A stretch of 64,000 nucleotides of DNA from a virus (lineage: Duplodnaviria; Caudoviricetes), in IMG/VR virus record IMGVR_UViG_3300020419_001132, one strand, 5' to 3'. The notes under the pieces are model-generated. The model saw nothing but the letters and a program-made list of their open reading frames with translations, was not told the origin of the DNA and ran no database searches. This document shows, in pieces, positions 9,103 through 18,450 of the stretch (within the stretch, counting starts at the first letter, position 1; every line of letters begins with the position of its first letter). The translations under genes were made by a program, and so were the position numbers.

Positions 9103-9624
9103 TTACGAGTACTCAACTCCTGAATAAAAAGGAATATTTCTATTCTTTATTATACTAGATCCTGGCAAATATGTCAAGTCCATAATACAAGCACAAGCAA
9201 TAACTTTTCCACCTAACGCTTCAACAATATCTATAGCCGCATTCATTGTTCCGCCAGTAGCCATCAAATCATCTATAATAATTACCTTATCATCTTTAGA
9301 TATTGCATCTGATTTAATTTCTAATGTAGCAGTACTATATTCTAACTGATACTCTTTAGACTCTGTAGGAGGTGGGAGCTTTCCCTTTTTTCTGGCCAAA
9401 ACTAATGGTCCTCTTGTCCTGTGAGCAAATACACTTGCAAAAATAAATCCTCTTGCATCTAAGCCTACAATTTTATCTACTGGACAATATTTTAACAATT
9501 TACTGTAAACAAAATTATTTGCCTCGGCAAAGCCTTCTGGACTTTGGCATAGACTTGCTGTGCATTTAAAGTCTATACCGTCTTTAGGAAAACCTTGATA
9601 ACTTCTTACATAATCTTTTATCAT
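9103..9624 (-). CDS. apt: adenine phosphoribosyltransferase
   Basis: FPKDGIDF, GLDARGFIF, RKKGKLP, LEYSTATLEI, PRPP motif IIDDLMATGGT; TAATG coupling to the upstream gene places the start at 9624. Confidence 0.92.
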   Translation of the reverse strand: MIKDYVRSYQGFPKDGIDFKCTASLCQSPEGFAEANNFVYSKLLKYCPVDKIVGLDARGFIFASVFAHRTRGPLVLARKKGKLPPPTESKEYQLEYSTATLEIKSDAISKDDKVIIIDDLMATGGTMNAAIDIVEALGGKVIACACIMDLTYLPGSSIIKNRNIPFYSGVEYS

Positions 9625-10481
9625 TAATAACTCTGTGCTAAACGCCACATTAGATATTCTTTGCTTTCGATAGGATCATACTTGTCTGGTTGGTCTGTTA
9701 GATTTTTTACTATAGTTCCAGGAGTAGGGTCTACAAAGTGTGGCATGCTGTGTCTAGGAATATGACAATGACTATTTTCAACTCTGTGTCGTGTGCTTTT
9801 AAAATAATCATTTGTCCAACGTTGTAACAAGTCTCCGATATTTACAACAACGCCATTCCATACATAAGGAACAGGATGCCATTTTCCATCTAAATCTTCA
9901 ACTTCTAATCCAGGTACGCTGTCTATCTGCCATAATAGTGTTATAGTTCCGTAATCGCTATGTTCACCAATTCTCATTTGTCTGTCTAATGTAGGCTTCA
10001 TTGCAGGATAATGTATGACTCTAGTTGTATTGTAAGGCTCTATATGTGCATCTACTAGTGTAGTTCCACTGTCTAGTATTGTATCAAATTTTGCCAAAAT
10101 ATCTAGCGTGAGTCTATCTGCAACGTCTATTGACTGCAATGCAGTTTCTTTAAATCCTTTGATGCTACTAGGCCAAAGATCATCAGGCATACGTGTATTG
10201 TTATAGTTAAAACTTTCTTTCATATCTTTAGGAGCAGTTGGATCTACATTTTCCGCACCTACTATACTGTAACCTAAATTGGTCTCTGTTCGGTAACTGT
10301 ATTTGTTTTTAGTTTCTTGATCTTGTTCAAAGAAACTTCTCATCAAGTCCCACCATACTTTCATAGTGTCCTGATCAGCATCTGAAAGTGCATGTTGGAA
10401 TACGGCGAAGCCTACCGTTGTATAGGCTTCGCGTATCTCTTCCAGTACTGTATTACTATTGTAATCAATTACTGGTATCAT
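9624..10481 (-). CDS. isopenicillin N synthase-family Fe(II)/2-oxoglutarate oxygenase
   Basis: IPVID N-terminus, HxD (EHSDYGTITLL), NIGDLLQRWTN, STRHRV, RxS (RHS); start MIPVID at 10481. Confidence 0.88.
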   Translation of the reverse strand: MIPVIDYNSNTVLEEIREAYTTVGFAVFQHALSDADQDTMKVWWDLMRSFFEQDQETKNKYSYRTETNLGYSIVGAENVDPTAPKDMKESFNYNNTRMPDDLWPSSIKGFKETALQSIDVADRLTLDILAKFDTILDSGTTLVDAHIEPYNTTRVIHYPAMKPTLDRQMRIGEHSDYGTITLLWQIDSVPGLEVEDLDGKWHPVPYVWNGVVVNIGDLLQRWTNDYFKSTRHRVENSHCHIPRHSMPHFVDPTPGTIVKNLTDQPDKYDPIESKEYLMWRLAQSY

Positions 10482-10482
10482 T

Positions 10483-11571
10483 TTAGTTTGGCACTTTTGC
10501 GTCGATGCCTTCAACATAGTATGTCATACTATCTAGATGAGCTCTACTAGCAACCTCACCGTCTTTAAGTTGAAGTTTGCCAGTATTATCTTTTAAAGGA
10601 CCTGTAAATGCAAAGTAAGTTCCGGCTTCAATAGCGGCTTTAACTTCTTCTGCTTTTGCTCTTACATCATCTGGCATGTTAGTAAACGGTGCCATTCCTA
10701 CTGCACAACCTGTTGCATCACATTCGCTGATGTCACCAAAGTATGTACCTGTTTCCCAAGTACCATCTAATACTGCACCTACTTTAGCAATATAATAAGG
10801 TGACCAGTTATCAATAGTTGCGGTTAACTGTGCTTTAGGAGCAAATCTGTATTGATCACTTGCTTGACCAAAACCAAATATACCTTGCTGTTGTGCAACC
10901 TGTATTGGAGCAGGCGAATCTGTATGTTGTGCAATTACATCACAACCTTGGCTAAACAACGCCTTGGCGGCGTCTGCTTCTTTACCTGGATCATACCATG
11001 TCATTACCCATACAATATCAATATCAACATCTGGGTTTACACTCTTGGCACCTAAGTAATAAGTGTTAATTTCTCTGATAACTTCAGGAATTGGATATGC
11101 GGCAACATAACAAATTTTGTTAGTCTTGGTCATCATACCTGCAATAACGCCCTGCACATGTCTAGCCTGGTACAGTTTTAAACCGTAATTAGCCATGTTA
11201 TCTGCTGTCTTATAACCAGTTGCATGTTCAAATTTTACATTTGGATATTCTTCTGCCACTTTTAACATACTGTCCATGTAACCAAAAGAAGTTGCAAATA
11301 TAATATCTACACCCTGCATAGCCATTTGACGCATTACACGAGATGCATCTGGACCATACTTTACGTTCTCAACGTATGTAGTTTCTACTCGATCACCAAA
11401 ATGTTTTTCGACATCCTGTCTACCAATGTCGTGTCTATAAGTCCAACCGTGATCACCTGTTGGTCCTACATATATAAAGCCTACTTTGACTTTGTCTTTA
11501 GGTTCATCAGCAAATGCTGATCCAGTAATTGCTAAAAAAATAGCAAATAGAGTTGAATAAAATAATTTCAT
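10483..11571 (-). CDS. BMP-family ABC transporter substrate-binding protein (purine nucleoside/nucleobase type)
   Basis: Signal peptide MKLFYSTLFAIFLAITGSAFA, KVGFIYVGPTGDHGWTYRH, IFATSFGY, WYDPGKE, QHTDS. Confidence 0.9.
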   Translation of the reverse strand: MKLFYSTLFAIFLAITGSAFADEPKDKVKVGFIYVGPTGDHGWTYRHDIGRQDVEKHFGDRVETTYVENVKYGPDASRVMRQMAMQGVDIIFATSFGYMDSMLKVAEEYPNVKFEHATGYKTADNMANYGLKLYQARHVQGVIAGMMTKTNKICYVAAYPIPEVIREINTYYLGAKSVNPDVDIDIVWVMTWYDPGKEADAAKALFSQGCDVIAQHTDSPAPIQVAQQQGIFGFGQASDQYRFAPKAQLTATIDNWSPYYIAKVGAVLDGTWETGTYFGDISECDATGCAVGMAPFTNMPDDVRAKAEEVKAAIEAGTYFAFTGPLKDNTGKLQLKDGEVASRAHLDSMTYYVEGIDAKVPN

Positions 11572-11601
11572 GTTTATCTCCTTCCGAGTTGTTATCTTAT
11601 T

Positions 11602-12063
11602 TTAAACAGGAGCATTCCACCAATGCTCCCAAGGAAAGTGTATCCAGATATCTTCCGTATCCTTAGCACATTCCTGTACATAATAATGAGGCTTGAATCC
11701 ACACTCATTATTCCACCAAAGAGATGCAAACCTAACCTCTACTTTCAGTTCAGTTGAACTCTCCATGTGTTCCTTAATTTTTATAAATGTTTCTCCCGAG
11801 TCGCATATATCATCTACAATCAATACACGTTCGTCGGTTTTTTTAGGTAAGTAATCTTCCCATTCTGGAAAATCTCTAAGGGAAGTTTTAATTGGCTTGA
11901 AAGGTTTCTTAAACCAATGAGACAACATTACTCCGGGGGTCAGTCCTCCCCTAGACAGCCCTACAATAACTTGAGGATCAAACTTGTCTAAAGTTACATG
12001 TCTACATAGAGCATTTACATCTCTACGCATCTCGTCCCATTTGTACCAGTGCTTGTGAGGCAT
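11602..12063 (-). CDS. xanthine/guanine phosphoribosyltransferase-like protein (type I PRTase)
   Basis: VGLSRGGL, PRPP motif LIVDDICDSGET, WIHFPWE C-terminus typical of Gpt-like enzymes. Confidence 0.82.
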   Translation of the reverse strand: MPHKHWYKWDEMRRDVNALCRHVTLDKFDPQVIVGLSRGGLTPGVMLSHWFKKPFKPIKTSLRDFPEWEDYLPKKTDERVLIVDDICDSGETFIKIKEHMESSTELKVEVRFASLWWNNECGFKPHYYVQECAKDTEDIWIHFPWEHWWNAPV

Positions 12064-12090
12064 TTTTACTTTCTGAAGTTGTCTACATGG

Positions 12091-12098
12091 TATTTATA
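12091..12098 (-). promoter_or_regulatory. perfect T4 late promoter TATAAATA upstream of the purine operon
   Basis: TATTTATA on plus is TATAAATA on minus, 27 nt upstream of the ATG at 12063 and downstream of a terminator. Confidence 0.65.
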
Positions 12099-12812: not shown

Positions 12813-15800
12813 TTACCCCATTTTTTTCAGTTTAGCTTGTTGCTCGGCTGTTCTAGCTTCTTTTTCACTCTTATATGTTTTACCACCAAACTCATATCCA
12901 TTAGCAGTCTTTTTATATGTGAACTTTCCGTATGCTTCTTCCAAACCCTTGGCAAGTTGAGCTCTGTATTTGTCTACTTCTTCATTATGTATTGCAGGAT
13001 CCTTAGCACGTAAAGCACCCGGTGGTTTTGGTCTATTTAATCCGCCAGCAATATCTCTAGTCATATAATCATCGTCTTTATATTCCTCATCTGGTGAATT
13101 ATCCCATTCTTCTCCGACATCTTCTTCACCCATTCCGCATGGACTCGGTGAATCCATTGGTCCTTCAGGATCCATCATTTGTATCTTGGATACCATGTCA
13201 TCATGTTTATCCTTGTACATTGGCATATCACTTACTGGTTCTGCCTTTTCCATTCCTGCGTTTCTAAGAAGTGCAACAAGTTCAGCAACTTCTGTAGAGT
13301 TATCGCCGTTCATTGATATGTTCATAGAAGCCGCTTCGTTTACTTTTTTAGTCATGTCGTACTCCTTATTTTCATTTTTTGGAGACCCATCTGGATTATG
13401 AGTTGCTCCGTATAGTCTATCCCATCTATCTTGCATCTTGTTTCTTCCGCCTTGGGTTAGTGGTCTAGGTTTTACACTTGCTTTTGGTTGTTTTGTTTTA
13501 TCTACTGTTTGGTTAGTAGTTGATGCCGCCGCGGCTCCCATTGCTTGTCCATCTTTATAAGCCGCCGCATTTGGATCAGATGTATTAACTTGGTCTTGGC
13601 CTTGACTAACTCCTCCGTCTTGATCAACTGCTTGTGATGTAGTAGTGTCTGACGCTTTTGGTTTACCTACTGTACTTCCGTCAGCTTTAGCTGATGCTAA
13701 GTTAGCAATCTTATCAAAAATTAATTGTTTAGCTGTACCTATAACTTTACCGTCTTTTTTGTAAAATTCTCCTGGATCTATTTCATCTTCTAAATCAGTA
13801 TATAGATCGCTCTTGAACTGTGCTAAGTATGATGCTGAAACTGCTTTGTATTGTTGATTTGTTGTTATCTGTTCAAACACCTCAAAAAGTGCAACTTCAT
13901 CAGTGCCTGCTCCAGTAAAGCCACCTTTCATTGCTTGATAAAGTTTAGCGGCCATTCCTGCTTCGCCGCCAGTTGCTTGGTCAACTTTTTTACTTGTGTT
14001 TTTATCTGATTGCTGGCCGTCTTGATCTTTTGCATCTGTTGACCCGTCATCTTTTGCATCTGTTGACCCGTCATCTTTTGCATCTGTTGACCCGTCATCT
14101 TTTGCATCACTTGCTGGCTTAGCATCACTGAGAGGAGTTGATAGATCCTCACTACCACTTTCTATGTAACCTTTAATGTCTTTACCGTAAGGTATACCTT
14201 GACCGTCTAAAAAGTCCTTAACCATCTGACCTTCAGGCTCAGTTACTTTAGCCATTGTTTGTGTATTTCTTACATAAACTTGCTTGCCGCCACTTATTGA
14301 TCTTACTCTATCTCTTTTACCAACAGGATCTTTTACAATATAAAAATCACTTTCGCTTTCATCCATTAGTGTATCAATGTAGAACGTTGCTGGAGGCAAT
14401 CCTAAGTAATCTAATATATCTTGTGGGAGCGGAATAAATCTACCTTTGCCTGCATCTGCATCTTGCCCAGCACCAGTAGCTGATGCTACCCCCTTAGGAT
14501 CATTTTTAATAACCTGACCCATTAAGTCTTTTACAGACTTAGGTAGTGTCATTTGATATTCTGTATCGTCGAACTTTGCTTTGTGCTTTGCTAACAAGTC
14601 TGAATATTCTTTCTGTTCTGCGGCTGATAATGCTTCAAGCAAATTACCACCTTCTAGAATATTCATAAAATATCTAAACTCTTGTGATTCAGCTTTTACT
14701 TGTTTGGATAATTCAGCCATTCTCTTTAGATCATCATAAAAAGTAATGACGCCGGGAATGTTACCCATTTTCTCCATTGCACCTATTGTGTTTGGTCCTG
14801 CATCACCGTCTTGTTTTGCTCCTAGCATTTCCTGTAAACGCTTCACAGCATCTACAGTACCTTTGCCATACTTTCCATCTATGGACATTTCAATGCCCAT
14901 ATCTTTTAATCTTGATTGTAATTCTTTGATAGCATCTACTTCGTCAGTATCATTGGCAAGTCCGCCTTTACCACTTTTGGCAAACTTTGCTAGAGCACCT
15001 CTTGGTGTGCTATCCTTTTTCTTTTTCTCTTTCTCTTTATCAAAGTCGGGATCAGTTATTGCTGGATCTCCATAAACATCTTTGTTAATGTCTTGGGCTG
15101 TTTTTTCACCATCTAAGTCTGCTTGTGCTGGATCCACGTCTGCATCTTTTCCTGCGGCTGACTTTGTCGCTTTTGCTTTGTTTGCCGCGGCATCAAAACT
15201 TGCTTTTGCTTTTTCTTTTTCAGCGGCTATTGCTATTTCTTTATCATACTTCCATTTATCTACAAGGTCCTGTGCAAAACCTATATTTGCATCATTAATT
15301 GTTTTATTTTTTATAGCAGAGTTCATTGCATCAACAATTTGTTGGAGTTCTAATTCTTCTGCATCTGATAACTTTTCTTCATTTAGCTGTTTGTATAGAT
15401 CACCAAATACAGATCTAAAATCTACATTAGCCATCATTACTTCGCCTTTTTGGGCTTTCTTTAGAAGTTCTTCGTATCTATCTATATACTTCATGATATT
15501 ATCATCAGTTATAGAAATTCCGCCTGCTTTGTCTGCATCTTTAGCTACATCTGTCTTTATTTCTTTACCAGGTACTTTAGTAGTACCTTTAATTTTTGCA
15601 TCGTCACCAAAGAATTTCTTTAACTGTTCTACAGTACCATATGTACGAACTTTTACATTATCTTTGTTAATCTTGTCTACATAGGGTGCAGTTCTGTCTA
15701 TGTTAAAATTACTACGTTTTCCGTTTGATTGTATTCTCCATTCTTTGCCTGGCTTAGAATCTTTTGCTTGAGCATCATCTGCCGCGCCTTTCATTTTTAA

Positions 15801-16241
15801 ATCAATCCTGTATTTTTTTGCAACTTTACCTGGAAGCAACCCTTTATTGTTTTGATCAATAGCATCGTCGTTGTCGCCTCTACCTAATTCATATCTATCA
15901 AATTCATCAACATCTGTAGTAATATATCTACCATTGTTCATGAACATGCCTTTTAATCCTAGGCGTTTTGCTATTTTACCAAAATATTGTCTTTCTAAGA
16001 AATCATCTGTAACTACAAAGTTTTTTATACCAGTAAATATATTATCATTATCTTTGCCGTCATCCAGTGCAAGTGCCATGTCGAAACCTTTGTTTAACAC
16101 AGCATCTCTATTAATCATTTTACCTTTGCTGTGTCCTGCAGATCCTCTAAGGACTGTAGCAACAATTTTATCTATCTCTTTATCAAATGTTGCTTCTGTA
16201 AGTATTTTGTGCCCTTCAGCAATGGTAATAAAATTTCTCAT
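12813..16241 (-). CDS. large putative internal virion protein with a peptidoglycan-binding domain and an annexin-like repeat
   Basis: PG_binding_1-like IKELQSRL...IDGKYGKGTVDAVKRLQ...QDGDAGPNT; annexin-like AAKLYQAMKGGFTGAGTDE; several [IL]xE motifs. Confidence 0.7.
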   Translation of the reverse strand: MRNFITIAEGHKILTEATFDKEIDKIVATVLRGSAGHSKGKMINRDAVLNKGFDMALALDDGKDNDNIFTGIKNFVVTDDFLERQYFGKIAKRLGLKGMFMNNGRYITTDVDEFDRYELGRGDNDDAIDQNNKGLLPGKVAKKYRIDLKMKGAADDAQAKDSKPGKEWRIQSNGKRSNFNIDRTAPYVDKINKDNVKVRTYGTVEQLKKFFGDDAKIKGTTKVPGKEIKTDVAKDADKAGGISITDDNIMKYIDRYEELLKKAQKGEVMMANVDFRSVFGDLYKQLNEEKLSDAEELELQQIVDAMNSAIKNKTINDANIGFAQDLVDKWKYDKEIAIAAEKEKAKASFDAAANKAKATKSAAGKDADVDPAQADLDGEKTAQDINKDVYGDPAITDPDFDKEKEKKKKDSTPRGALAKFAKSGKGGLANDTDEVDAIKELQSRLKDMGIEMSIDGKYGKGTVDAVKRLQEMLGAKQDGDAGPNTIGAMEKMGNIPGVITFYDDLKRMAELSKQVKAESQEFRYFMNILEGGNLLEALSAAEQKEYSDLLAKHKAKFDDTEYQMTLPKSVKDLMGQVIKNDPKGVASATGAGQDADAGKGRFIPLPQDILDYLGLPPATFYIDTLMDESESDFYIVKDPVGKRDRVRSISGGKQVYVRNTQTMAKVTEPEGQMVKDFLDGQGIPYGKDIKGYIESGSEDLSTPLSDAKPASDAKDDGSTDAKDDGSTDAKDDGSTDAKDQDGQQSDKNTSKKVDQATGGEAGMAAKLYQAMKGGFTGAGTDEVALFEVFEQITTNQQYKAVSASYLAQFKSDLYTDLEDEIDPGEFYKKDGKVIGTAKQLIFDKIANLASAKADGSTVGKPKASDTTTSQAVDQDGGVSQGQDQVNTSDPNAAAYKDGQAMGAAAASTTNQTVDKTKQPKASVKPRPLTQGGRNKMQDRWDRLYGATHNPDGSPKNENKEYDMTKKVNEAASMNISMNGDNSTEVAELVALLRNAGMEKAEPVSDMPMYKDKHDDMVSKIQMMDPEGPMDSPSPCGMGEEDVGEEWDNSPDEEYKDDDYMTRDIAGGLNRPKPPGALRAKDPAIHNEEVDKYRAQLAKGLEEAYGKFTYKKTANGYEFGGKTYKSEKEARTAEQQAKLKKMG
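14025..14108. repeat. 24-bp tandem repeat, 3.5 copies, in frame (DAKDDGST)
   Basis: ATCTTTTGCATCTGTTGACCCGTC at 14025, 14049 and 14073, plus a partial copy at 14097. Confidence 0.95.
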
Positions 16242-17327: not shown

Positions 17328-18013
17328 TAAATACTAGTATTATTTAGTGTTGATAGCGGATCCTCGGCCCATTCTTCTCTGTCAATTTTGACATACCAAG
17401 CTCTATAAGGCTTTCCGTAACCTTCAAATTTAGGGTTCCATAAGTATTTACGCATCCACTTATCATATCCTTTGCCTGACCCTGCGTTATTTGTTTTAAT
17501 AAAAACTCTTTTTACATGTTTAAAAACATCATTAAAGAAAAACACCCAGTCAAATCTTGTTCCTTGTTCTAGGTATTTCTTTGCTGGTCCGGCAGTTGCT
17601 AGTGAGTCAAACGTTGTTCTAGTAGCAGTAAACAAATCGTATTTTCCAGGAAACTTCATAGGCTTTCTATTATAGATGTACATAGGATGTACTTTGAGAT
17701 TTATAATTTCCCAGCACAATGGATATATTTCTCCTTCAAACTCGTCACCTATATCAGTAGCCTCTACTTGAATGCCTTCTTTCATTAACAACCAAGGAAG
17801 TAATCCGATTCCGGTACCGACATCGATAGCAGTTTTTATTCCGTCCAAATTACATCTCTGAACAAAGAATTCTTTCTCTTTTAAATAATGATCCCATTTA
17901 CGTAAAAACTTTGCTCCTACACCATACTTGTCAGGATATCCGTGATTAGTAGTTTCTATGTTTGGATTTCTTAATAATTTTTGTAATATTTCTTCTTTAT
18001 AGTCTATTATCAT
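17327..18013 (-). CDS. putative SAM-dependent methyltransferase
   Basis: IDVGTGIG motif I, ATDIG motif II, KYDLF. Confidence 0.6.
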   Translation of the reverse strand: MIIDYKEEILQKLLRNPNIETTNHGYPDKYGVGAKFLRKWDHYLKEKEFFVQRCNLDGIKTAIDVGTGIGLLPWLLMKEGIQVEATDIGDEFEGEIYPLCWEIINLKVHPMYIYNRKPMKFPGKYDLFTATRTTFDSLATAGPAKKYLEQGTRFDWVFFFNDVFKHVKRVFIKTNNAGSGKGYDKWMRKYLWNPKFEGYGKPYRAWYVKIDREEWAEDPLSTLNNTSI

Positions 18014-18450
18014 TATCTATTACCTCCTTGATGAAATATATCATTTTCAGTAACTACTCTAAAAGTTATCCTATTTTGTCTACACCAATGTCTCGCGGCT
18101 TCCCACTTTGCTTGGTTCAATATGTAACTTGCTTTGTTGTGATTACTTCTACCAACCTTTTCTCTCAATGCTTGGTTTGCAGGTTTTACTTCAATACATT
18201 CTGCTTTAGGTTTACCATTTCTATCAGTATATGCAATAAAAAAATCTGGTACATACACAGTATGTTTTCCTGTCAGTGGATTTCTATATGGTATCTTAAA
18301 TGCTTCCGAAGCCCATTGACTAACACTTGGATGCTCGTCGCAAAACCGCATGAAAGCAAATTCCCAACTGCTTCTATATGTTGGCGTTTTTCTACCTGAA
18401 TATTTTTCGGGATTCTTTAAGGTATATTTGCCTGAAGCAAACCTAGCCAT
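18013..18450 (-). CDS. head completion nuclease (T4 gp4-like, TnsA fold)
   Basis: KNPEKY...YRSSWE...WASE...YVPDF...IEVKP...KWEAA. Confidence 0.9.
   Translation of the reverse strand: MARFASGKYTLKNPEKYSGRKTPTYRSSWEFAFMRFCDEHPSVSQWASEAFKIPYRNPLTGKHTVYVPDFFIAYTDRNGKPKAECIEVKPANQALREKVGRSNHNKASYILNQAKWEAARHWCRQNRITFRVVTENDIFHQGGNR

Follow-up and report, generated by a model that had tools for sequence, protein, structure and literature searches.

Annexins are built from a Ca2+- and lipid-binding unit familiar above all from animals and are usually regarded as eukaryotic, bacterial relatives being rare. The members with which we compare the protein described here are the eukaryotic annexins A2, A4, A5 and A6, the giardins, and bacterial annexins with single or few repeats. 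The bacterial proteins come from the catalogue of Kodavali et al. (2014; PMC3894181), the one systematic survey, which reported no viral annexins. Single annexin domains have also been found in the cargo toxins of the PVC/eCIS phage-tail-like injection systems, where they are proposed to aid the breaching of membranes (Zhang, Aravind et al. 2012; PMC3482391).

Three groups of phage proteins provide further points of reference. The internal proteins IPI, IPII and IPIII of bacteriophage T4, together with Alt, are cargo carrying a capsid-targeting sequence and are cut by the prohead protease gp21. Pseudomonas phage PA5oct encodes gp281, a 498-residue structural protein detected by ESI-MS/MS. Finally, the phage proteins that act on murein include enzymes with a PG_binding_1 domain, namely phiKZ gp144 and the endolysin of Burkholderia phage AP3, as well as lysins associated with the virion, for example T4 gp5. 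Here, we describe P0001, which is encoded by a marine jumbo myovirus, as yet uncultured, whose terminase and that of PA5oct share 53% identity. Its gene was analysed in a stretch of 64,000 nucleotides, referred to below as the window.

Gene and domain organisation

The preliminary description of this DNA had quoted an annexin-like peptide of 63 residues. The peptide is present letter for letter on the minus strand at nucleotides 13764–13952, as residues 764–826 of P0001; the plus strand of the interval 13765–13955 is occupied by stops. The features of P0001 and of the gene upstream are collected in Table 1. The start of P0001 and the stop of the upstream structural gene overlap by 1 nt (TAATG), which suggests that translation of the two is coupled, and the sequence GGGAG lies upstream of the start. 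The T4 late-promoter motif TATAAATA has one copy in the window and none upstream of the P0001 gene. Short contigs in metatranscriptome runs match stretches of the gene exactly; they may stem from phage DNA carried over into the RNA libraries, and the stretches without a contig carry no meaning.

Table 1. Coordinates of P0001, its domains and the neighbouring upstream gene
Feature	Positions	Strand	Remarks
Upstream gene, 189 aa	16241..16810	minus	homologue of PA5oct structural protein gp282
P0001, modular ORF, 1142 aa	12813..16241	minus	variable 'slot' gene between gp282-like gene and terL
N-terminal leader, aa 1–16, MRNFITIAEGHKILTE, ends LTE-AT	16194..16241	minus	candidate capsid-targeting/propeptide segment
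N-terminal α/β region, aa 17–225	15567..16193	minus	pLDDT mostly 70–85 (full-length model)
Helical bundle, aa 245–357	15171..15509	minus	generic spectrin-like/three-helix matches only, Z about 7
PG_binding_1, Pfam aa 436–489, fold aa 413–495	14757..15005	minus	Pfam and structural matches
Conserved helical region and small α/β domain, aa 496–690	14172..14756	minus	
Acidic low-complexity linker, aa 691–757	13971..14171	minus	
Single annexin repeat, aa 759–850	13692..13967	minus	helices A–D, β-hairpin insertion, helix E
AB (Ca2+) loop, aa 771–782, MKGGFTGAGTDE	13896..13931	minus	GxGT at 777–780
Glu820	13782..13784	minus	acidic 'cap' residue of type II annexin Ca2+ site
β-Hairpin insertion between helices D and E, aa 823–836	13734..13775	minus	closest orthologues only
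C-terminal module, aa 955–1104	12930..13379	minus	motifs NEAASMN, LRNAGM, WDNSPDEEY, GGLNRPK

P0001 is a soluble 'beads on a string' protein in which long disordered linkers separate the PG_binding_1 domain from the annexin repeat. Disorder is predicted for 46% of its residues (pLDDT below 50 in the full-length model), and the acidic linker holds a perfect tandem repeat of 3.5 copies of a 24-bp unit (14025–14108), encoding DAKDDGST units. A hydropathy scan revealed no signal peptide and no hydrophobic or membrane segment, the highest 19-residue Kyte–Doolittle mean being 0.79; P0001 therefore has neither the make-up of a spanin nor that of a membrane-anchored lysis protein. For the same reason, the peptidoglycan-binding domain cannot get to murein by way of secretion.

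Much of the remaining chain is without relatives in the collections searched. Residues 17–225 matched no Pfam, PHROG or Atlas family, and neither this region nor the C-terminal module yielded a usable match in Atlas feature searches. Profiles of the middle region and of the C-terminal module returned no credible match among PDB sequences, and no catalytic signature was seen in residues 496–690. Proteins consisting of the C-terminal module alone, and the neighbouring small ORFs, matched no informative Pfam or PHROG family.

The annexin repeat

The annexin-type repeat in P0001 is genuine and goes beyond chance resemblance. The Pfam Annexin model (PF00191) matches P0001 itself at residues 764–821 with an E-value of 7.9e-4 and 19.9 bits, under the gathering score of 25 bits, and orthologues of P0001 lie above this cut-off with 37.5, 32.0, 29.4 and 25.1 bits. 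The copy in a near-identical record, G001, which shares 80% of the 31-mers of the window, scores 24.3 bits, or 25.4 bits if in-frame neighbours are included. When a 19-sequence profile of the annexin region was compared with the PDB, annexin VI was matched at an E-value of 4.7e-61 and single repeats at about 1e-7. At E ≤ 1e-3, the annexin-region profile identified 4154 cluster representatives out of 1.84 billion proteins; these are mainly multi-repeat proteins without names.

The AlphaFold2 model of the repeat, with a pLDDT of 90, has the five helices (A–E) of the annexin repeat fold and an extra β-hairpin between helices D and E. The best 50 Foldseek matches to this model are all annexin structures, annexin A2 crystallisation-chaperone fusions counted, with TMq values of up to 0.70 and rmsd values of 1.2–2 Å. 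VIA-align, which is independent of Foldseek, superimposed the model on annexin A2 with a Z-score of 11.5 (1.8 Å over 75 residues), on giardins with a Z-score of 10.8 and on the isolated domain 1 of annexin I with a Z-score of 9.4. A Pfam HMM search and an AlphaFold model were among the checks proposed in the preliminary description, and both profile matches (in orthologues) and structural matches were obtained. The claim made there of an annexin repeat in a phage protein is thus confirmed by the Pfam scores of the orthologues, by the family profile searched against the PDB and by the fold match. According to the family profile, there is one repeat in P0001 and there are two in its relative P0039. 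P0001 is an annexin-repeat-containing protein, and the core disc of a classical annexin, made up of four or eight tandem repeats, is absent from it.

A type II Ca2+ site is defined here by an (M/L)-K-G-x-G-T loop followed, some 38 residues further on, by an acidic residue. P0001 has kept G777-A-G-T780, with three residues inserted between K-G and GxGT and a spacing to the cap residue that is one residue longer than is canonical. The cap residue, Glu820, is invariant in 19 orthologues and aligns with the cap glutamate of the annexin VI repeats; across the family, this position is Glu or Asp in 44 of 44 distinct phage repeats. Several sister lineages have the exact canonical K-G-x-G-T-D-E loop, and many others, that of the window among them, carry AB-loop insertions of 3–10 residues. 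The model confidence of P0001 drops at the AB loop. Given the insertion and this lower confidence, Ca2+ binding may be altered or abolished in the protein of the window. One lipid-binding site is to be had from a single repeat, compared with four in the classical annexins.

The peptidoglycan-binding domain

The presence of a peptidoglycan-binding domain in the same protein, also put forward in the preliminary description, is borne out by a match of residues 436–489 to PG_binding_1 (PF01471), for which the score is 44.9 bits and the cut-off 23. The model has the three-helix fold of wall-binding domains, and its structural matches are the N-domain of SleB (Z = 10.1), the phage AP3 endolysin (Z = 9.8) and phiKZ gp144 (Z = 8.9). 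Some orthologues contain a LysM domain in addition. No catalytic hydrolase, amidase or peptidase domain was found in P0001 with Pfam, PHROG or PDB profiles, or in a comparison of the full-length model with structures across the PDB that covered mainly residues 243–356, 413–494 and 758–846. A fold search of BFVD with the same model gave global matches that are meaningless, as well as peptidoglycan-binding domains.

A variable gene in a fixed position

The position of the gene, to which we refer as the slot, is the same in 80 of 80 related viral contigs: a gene for a virion protein similar to PA5oct gp282, the P0001 homologue and the large terminase follow one another. The slot sits in a structural block with the sheath, tube, head-completion and terminase genes. 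The 189-residue protein encoded upstream of P0001 is homologous to gp282 (E = 2e-19), which was detected by mass spectrometry in PA5oct.

Across the related loci, the slot protein varies in length from 157 to 1331 residues. Every architecture begins with a short, amphipathic leader and has a conserved C-terminal module that is predicted to be disordered. Among the complete ORFs in the 80 loci, an annexin domain occurs in 19, each of which (19/19) also has a peptidoglycan-binding domain; nine have the peptidoglycan-binding domain alone, and both domains are missing from 38. Where they occur together, they are found in either order along the chain. We conclude that the leader and the C-terminal module constitute the ancestral gene of the slot, between whose halves a wall-binding domain alone, or wall-binding and annexin domains together, have been inserted in some lineages.

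Searches of 50,697 phage genomes with the P0001 gene and protein (megablast and tblastn) gave nothing at 1e-3; at E ≤ 10, the tblastn matches were to the peptidoglycan-binding domain only and came from endolysins. Likewise, tblastn with PA5oct gp281 found PA5oct-like phages only. No significant similarity to gp281 was detected by BLASTP or hhalign with P0001 and the C-module profiles (A3 and A5), the best hhalign result being a local match of 22 columns with a probability of 1.8% and an E-value of 0.027 that refers to a single pairwise comparison.

The leader and the prohead protease

The leader of P0001 ends in LxE-A and resembles that of T4 IPI (...ITE-ATL); its Glu16 is invariant in 19 orthologues. 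A pattern in the style of the T4 internal proteins, composed after the sequences had been seen, matches two of 98 ORFs, P0001 and its upstream neighbour. The best match in the window to the T4 capsid-targeting sequence is the N-terminus of the upstream gene product, MKKFAEYLTE, and the similarity score of P0001 is tied third among the 98 ORFs. Of the 38 distinct leaders in the family, 16 contain an [ILV]xE[AGS] site. The T4-type prohead protease, Peptidase_S77, was identified in G001 with 87.5 bits, at a location outside the window.

Proposed role and alternatives

We favour, with a probability of roughly 0.5, an explanation in which the slot protein with its annexin and peptidoglycan-binding domains acts as a particle-borne tether at the cell envelope. 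Because the leader resembles that of the T4 internal proteins, a T4-type prohead protease is encoded and a signal peptide is absent, we infer that P0001 is carried by the particle and may be ejected from it. That it is probably cargo of the head, to be released at the envelope as a link between wall and membrane, has by our reckoning of the sequence data slightly less than an even chance. The strict synteny beside a homologue of the mass-spectrometrically detected PA5oct gp282 gives indirect support to a particle-borne or internal protein. The interpretation offered in the preliminary description, an ejected internal virion protein bridging cell wall and inner membrane in a Ca2+-dependent way, is supported in part: an annexin repeat and a PG_binding_1 domain do occur in one phage protein encoded among virion genes, and the bridging would be a putative role of it.

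Under this proposal, P0001 would be built into the particle, its leader serving to recruit it to the head and being trimmed there by the prohead protease, and it would be released at the cell envelope during DNA delivery. The peptidoglycan-binding domain would then grip murein, and the annexin repeat would bind anionic phospholipid head groups through Ca2+. The flexible linkers would permit the chain to thread a narrow channel, to span the periplasm and to tether the wall to a membrane round the entry site. Ca2+ is at about 10 mM in seawater and periplasm, and free cytoplasmic Ca2+ is sub-micromolar. Given this gradient, we propose that lipid binding would be switched 'on' once P0001 is in the envelope and would be 'off' at its place of synthesis.

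A more elaborate version of the ejected tether, which we regard as unlikely though worth stating, has the annexin repeat as a Ca2+ sensor of the compartment and the cargo domains inserted at a duplicated site for the prohead protease. The duplicated site would comprise LxE-A after the leader and V-N-E-A where the NEAASMN motif begins, and maturation at it would free a wall-plus-membrane-binding fragment inside the head. If true, this would make the phage repeats the first functional viral annexins and the slot a natural case in which cargo has been inserted at a capsid-targeting cassette.

Two other readings place the protein elsewhere. It could be no part of the virion and assist late in infection in lysis or in remodelling the envelope, remaining cytoplasmic, like canonical endolysins with PG_binding_1, until it meets murein and membranes after holin lesions and there holding or disrupting the envelope. 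The best PHROG matches of the peptidoglycan-binding region are indeed endolysins, holin-dependent endolysins also have no signal peptide, and LysM is found in several relatives; however, no catalytic domain was found in the parts covered by the four kinds of search, the gene lies within the structural block in 80 of 80 loci with its start overlapping the stop of a structural gene by 1 nt, and in PA5oct both the occupant of the slot and its neighbour were detected in virions. We consider such a role rather improbable. We attach similarly little weight to an external decoration or a neck or collar protein on which variable wall-binding, annexin and LysM domains are displayed, in the manner of Hoc, so that the particle adheres to cells, vesicles or debris. 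A length range of 157–1331 residues with constant leader and C-terminal module would suit an anchor with swappable domains, and surface proteins typically have disordered linkers of this kind, with a perfect tandem repeat. Against this, intact Gram-negative or cyanobacterial cells do not expose their murein, leaving no obvious ligand, and an invariant Glu-Ala site in the leader together with a T4-type prohead protease is better suited to internal cargo.

A different doubt concerns the repeat itself, which might be an annexin repeat by descent that has lost Ca2+ and lipid binding and now serves as a helical spacer or protein–protein module without a role at membranes. The loop insertions in many lineages including that of the window, the lower model confidence at the loop and the occurrence of one repeat only all speak for such a loss. 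Of the 44 distinct repeats, essentially all nevertheless retain GxGT and the acidic cap, and several lineages have the exact K-G-x-G-T-D-E motif; since both elements are retained across sequences of 20–30% identity, the Ca2+ site appears to be under selection, and loss of function carries a low probability. Finally, a large protein encoded downstream of the sheath and tube genes could be a tape measure or another protein of the tail lumen with a wall-binding motif, and the top BFVD match of the full-length model is a tape measure protein. This match has a TM-score of 0.06 and an rmsd of 48 Å and is therefore meaningless. We rejected a tape measure on the grounds that P0001 has no continuous helix, consists of discrete domains and is 46% disordered, and a length ruler is ruled out by syntenic orthologues of 157–1331 residues beside conserved tube genes; a place in the tail lumen is thus very improbable.

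Whatever its precise role, the annexin repeat recurs, apparently under selection, as a module of a core gene of the structural block in marine jumbo phages of a widespread lineage. The particle-borne tether is a candidate for how a large phage grips wall and membrane while delivering several hundred kilobases of DNA. The single-repeat phage annexins, some of them with the canonical loop, offer material for studying one repeat alone, and the slot gene, with its modular accretion of cargo between constant leader and C-terminal module, bears on protein packaging in phage heads, engineering included.

Comparison with known systems

In its wall-binding fold, P0001 resembles phiKZ gp144 and the AP3 endolysin (Z = 8.9–9.8), which likewise belong to phages. 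It differs from the phage murein enzymes in that a hydrolase domain was not detected, making it, as far as can be seen, a binder rather than a cutter. With the T4 internal proteins, it has in common a short M-[KR]-x-[FY] leader ending in [IL]-x-E and followed by Ala. Two further features of T4 recur in this phage: a prohead protease in the genome (G001) and highly variable cargo behind a conserved leader. Past the leader there is no homology; P0001 is far larger and modular, and the C-terminal module is absent from the T4 proteins.

PA5oct gp281, the occupant of that phage's own slot, lies like P0001 between a gp282 homologue and terL, and the N-terminal leaders of the two are alike. They also have short motifs in common in the same order (LKNAG, WDNS..E and GDNA...), whereas gp281 has neither an annexin nor a peptidoglycan-binding domain.

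The phage repeats and the known annexins are alike in their length of some 70 residues, their five helices, the K-G..G-T-D-E loop and the acidic cap about 39–40 residues downstream. Unlike the known annexins, P0001 has one repeat and no four-repeat disc, a three-residue insertion in the loop and a β-hairpin between helices D and E, and its repeat is embedded in a 1142-residue protein of a phage structural block. From the PVC/eCIS cargo it is set apart by the absence of a toxin or enzyme domain, by its murein-binding partner domain and by its machine, which is a true phage and not an injector resembling a tailocin. In both, nevertheless, a lone annexin domain is an accessory module linked to a contractile machine of the phage-tail type, and a phage protein combining annexin and wall-binding domains thereby ties to the lone annexin domains in the cargo of phage-tail-like injection systems.

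Annexin homology of the repeat

The plus strand of 13765-13955 contains stops; the annexin-like peptide of the preliminary description, whose strand had gone unstated, is present on the minus strand, within the ORF encoding P0001 (see the table). With the Pfam Annexin HMM (gathering score 25 bits), residues 764-821 of P0001 score 19.9 bits (E 7.9e-4), under the cut-off, but orthologues exceed it at 37.5, 32.0, 29.4 and 25.1 bits. A search profile built by aligning 19 sequences of the repeat region retrieved only annexins from the PDB sequences, matching annexin VI with an E of 4.7e-61 across eight repeats (about 1e-7 for single repeats), and retrieved 4154 proteins at E ≤ 1e-3 among 1.84 billion cluster representatives. 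The AlphaFold2 model from this alignment (pLDDT 90) has four helices, then a β-hairpin, then a fifth helix. Its top 50 Foldseek matches in the PDB are all annexin structures, annexin A2 crystallisation-chaperone fusions being counted as such, with TMq ≤ 0.70 and rmsd of 1.2-2 Å. A structural search other than Foldseek gave annexin A2 (Z 11.5, 1.8 Å over 75 residues), giardins (Z 10.8) and isolated annexin I domain 1 (Z 9.4). The initial observation is confirmed, and annexin homology of the P0001 repeat is firm. P0001 has one such repeat; one relative, P0039, has two.

The classical type II annexin Ca2+ site consists of (M/L)-K-G-x-G-T and an acidic residue some 38 residues downstream. The corresponding loop of P0001, MKGGFTGAGTDE, has GxGT at 777-780 and three additional residues after K-G; Glu820, invariant in 19 orthologues, aligns with the cap position. 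Among 44 distinct phage repeats, the cap residue is E or D in every one, several lineages have the exact K-G-x-G-T-D-E, and in still others the loop is longer by 3-10 inserted residues. Because the cap is always acidic and the canonical loop occurs in several lineages, the putative site looks, from these alignments, ancestral and under selection.

Viruses were without annexins in the survey by Kodavali et al. 2014 (PMC3894181), and our full-text literature searches turned up no publication describing annexin domains in phages; automated Pfam tags already stand on some of the 38 relatives of P0001 in a 5.8-billion-protein collection, all metagenomic and several marine. We conclude that the domain family is a known one and that its novelty here lies in the setting rather than in kind. 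The P0001 gene recurs almost word for word in marine metagenomes from several studies, 2014 to 2025 (at least 78% of sampled 31-mers), and short contigs identical to parts of it occur in marine metatranscriptome libraries from four studies, which is compatible with its transcription but no proof of it.

Protein architecture and genome context

Features of the P0001 locus
Feature	Window (nt)	Strand	Remarks
P0001, 1142-aa ORF	12813..16241	minus	encloses 13765-13955
63-residue annexin-like peptide	13764-13952	minus	residues 764-826 of P0001
24-bp × 3.5 tandem repeat	14025-14108		100% matches; encodes DAKDDGST units, linker before annexin repeat
189-aa gene directly upstream of P0001	16241-16810	minus	homologue of PA5oct gp282, E 2e-19
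PRTase, BMP-type binding protein, oxygenase, 181-aa ORF	9103-12098	minus	between P0001 gene and terL
gp4-type head-closure protein	18013-18450	minus	Pfam Tn7_TnsA-like_N, 81 bits; endonuclease fold
Sole TATAAATA copy	12091-12098	minus	upstream of PRTase gene

P0001, whose gene occupies a slot among virion genes, is soluble and rich in linkers and combines a murein-binding domain with an annexin repeat. The peptidoglycan-binding domain noted earlier in this protein was recovered as PG_binding_1 at residues 436-489 (44.9 bits against a Pfam cut-off of 23). In the full-length model, in which pLDDT is below 50 for 46% of residues, linkers separate discrete folded units: an α/β region at the N-terminus, a bundle of helices, the PG-binding domain, a helical stretch with a small α/β domain, and the annexin repeat. 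The perfect identity of the 24-bp repeats suggests that this linker is recently expanded and length-variable. The most conserved sequence stretch, the C-terminal module (C-module, ~955-1104), is predicted by modelling to be disordered. P0001 has no hydrophobic segment or signal peptide, and Pfam, PHROG, PDB profile and fold searches found no catalytic domain in it, the fold search having covered mainly residues 243-356, 413-494 and 758-846.

The source is a jumbo myovirus. Its large terminase and the one from Pseudomonas phage PA5oct share 53% identity, and the gene order matches that phage through Ad2 adaptor, dNMP kinase, sheath, tube, tube-like protein, gp4-type head closure, small ORFs and terminase. 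The start of P0001 overlaps the stop of the gp282-like gene by 1 nt (TAATG), with GGGAG upstream. The PA5oct annotation lists gp282 as a structural protein with ESI-MS/MS detection; gp281, the PA5oct occupant of the slot, was likewise MS-detected and has only short motifs in common with P0001, the similarity not being significant.

The PRTase-containing block looks like a lineage-specific insertion because it is missing from all 80 related loci (L004-L083), where terL lies within ~0.1-1 kb of the slot gene and 81-aa and 126-aa ORFs are the only recurring ORFs between them. The T4 late-promoter octamer TATAAATA is strongly depleted, with one copy in 64 kb against ~10 expected from shuffles (at least one copy in 100/100 shuffles of the window).

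The slot-gene family

A C-module scan of IMG/VR found 132 encoding contigs, 80 of which were retrieved. The slot gene lies between the gp282-like gene and terL in 80/80, and its product ranges from 157 to 1331 aa; such variation next to tube genes that are conserved excludes a tape-measure role. Counting complete ORFs only, 38 have the C-module alone (about 200-290 aa), nine add a PG-binding domain, three have annexin, PG-binding domain and C-module in that order (578-604 aa), and 13 have PG-binding domain, middle region, annexin and C-module (about 900-1000 aa). In a further three (1142-1331 aa), not counting the window protein and the database set, an N-terminal domain precedes the latter arrangement. 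Both domain orders thus occur, and annexin without a wall-binding domain was never found among slot proteins. In three orthologues (P0014, P0016, P0017, P0039 set) a LysM lies between annexin repeat and C-module, giving two different murein-binding modules per protein. Every architecture retains a short amphipathic N-terminal leader; the ancestral slot gene is therefore leader plus C-module, with envelope-binding domains as insertions between the two.

Many short slot proteins (L035, L039, L043, L046, L065, L070, L071) end in a Cys-rich tail, as in C-G-K...K-K-L-M-A-C-S-S-C-G-C or G-C...E-K-L-Y-A-S-x-C-G, which resembles a small metal-binding knuckle; P0001 lacks it.

Possible head cargo and proposed mechanism

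In T4, the prohead protease cuts a capsid-targeting leader of 10-19 residues from the internal proteins (PMC3012670, PMC10229621); MKTYQEFIAE↓A and MKTFKEF...ITE↓ATL are the leader sequences in the T4 record. A T4-type prohead protease (Peptidase_S77, 87.5 bits) is encoded in a near-identical viral record (117 kb, estimated one third complete). By far the closest window match to MKTYQEFIAE is the gp282-like N-terminus, MKKFAEYLTE↓S, and this likeness, with homology to the MS-detected gp282, makes the 189-aa protein a likely internal head protein. P0001 begins MRNFITIAEGHKILTE↓AT, with E16 invariant in its family; among 98 ORFs its leader is only tied third against the T4 sequence. A T4-internal-protein-style pattern, composed after the sequences had been seen, matches only P0001 and the adjacent gp282-like gene in the 98 ORFs, and fewer than half of the distinct leaders in the family (16/38) have an [ILV]xE[AGS] site. 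In many members V/L/I-N-E↓A precedes the family hallmark NEAASMN, a sequence hint from which one might speculate that a duplicated cleavage site was the point of cargo insertion.

P0001 would be carried by the phage particle, most likely as head cargo, and would reach the cell envelope at infection, where PG_binding_1 may bind murein and the annexin repeat anionic lipid via Ca2+. Since seawater contains ~10 mM Ca2+ and cytoplasmic free Ca2+ is sub-micromolar, lipid binding would be switched on in the periplasm but off inside the cell that makes the protein. P0001 is a plausible candidate for an ejected Ca2+-dependent wall-membrane bridge; the closest precedent is the lone annexin domains in the cargo of PVC-type phage-tail-like injectors (PMC3482391).
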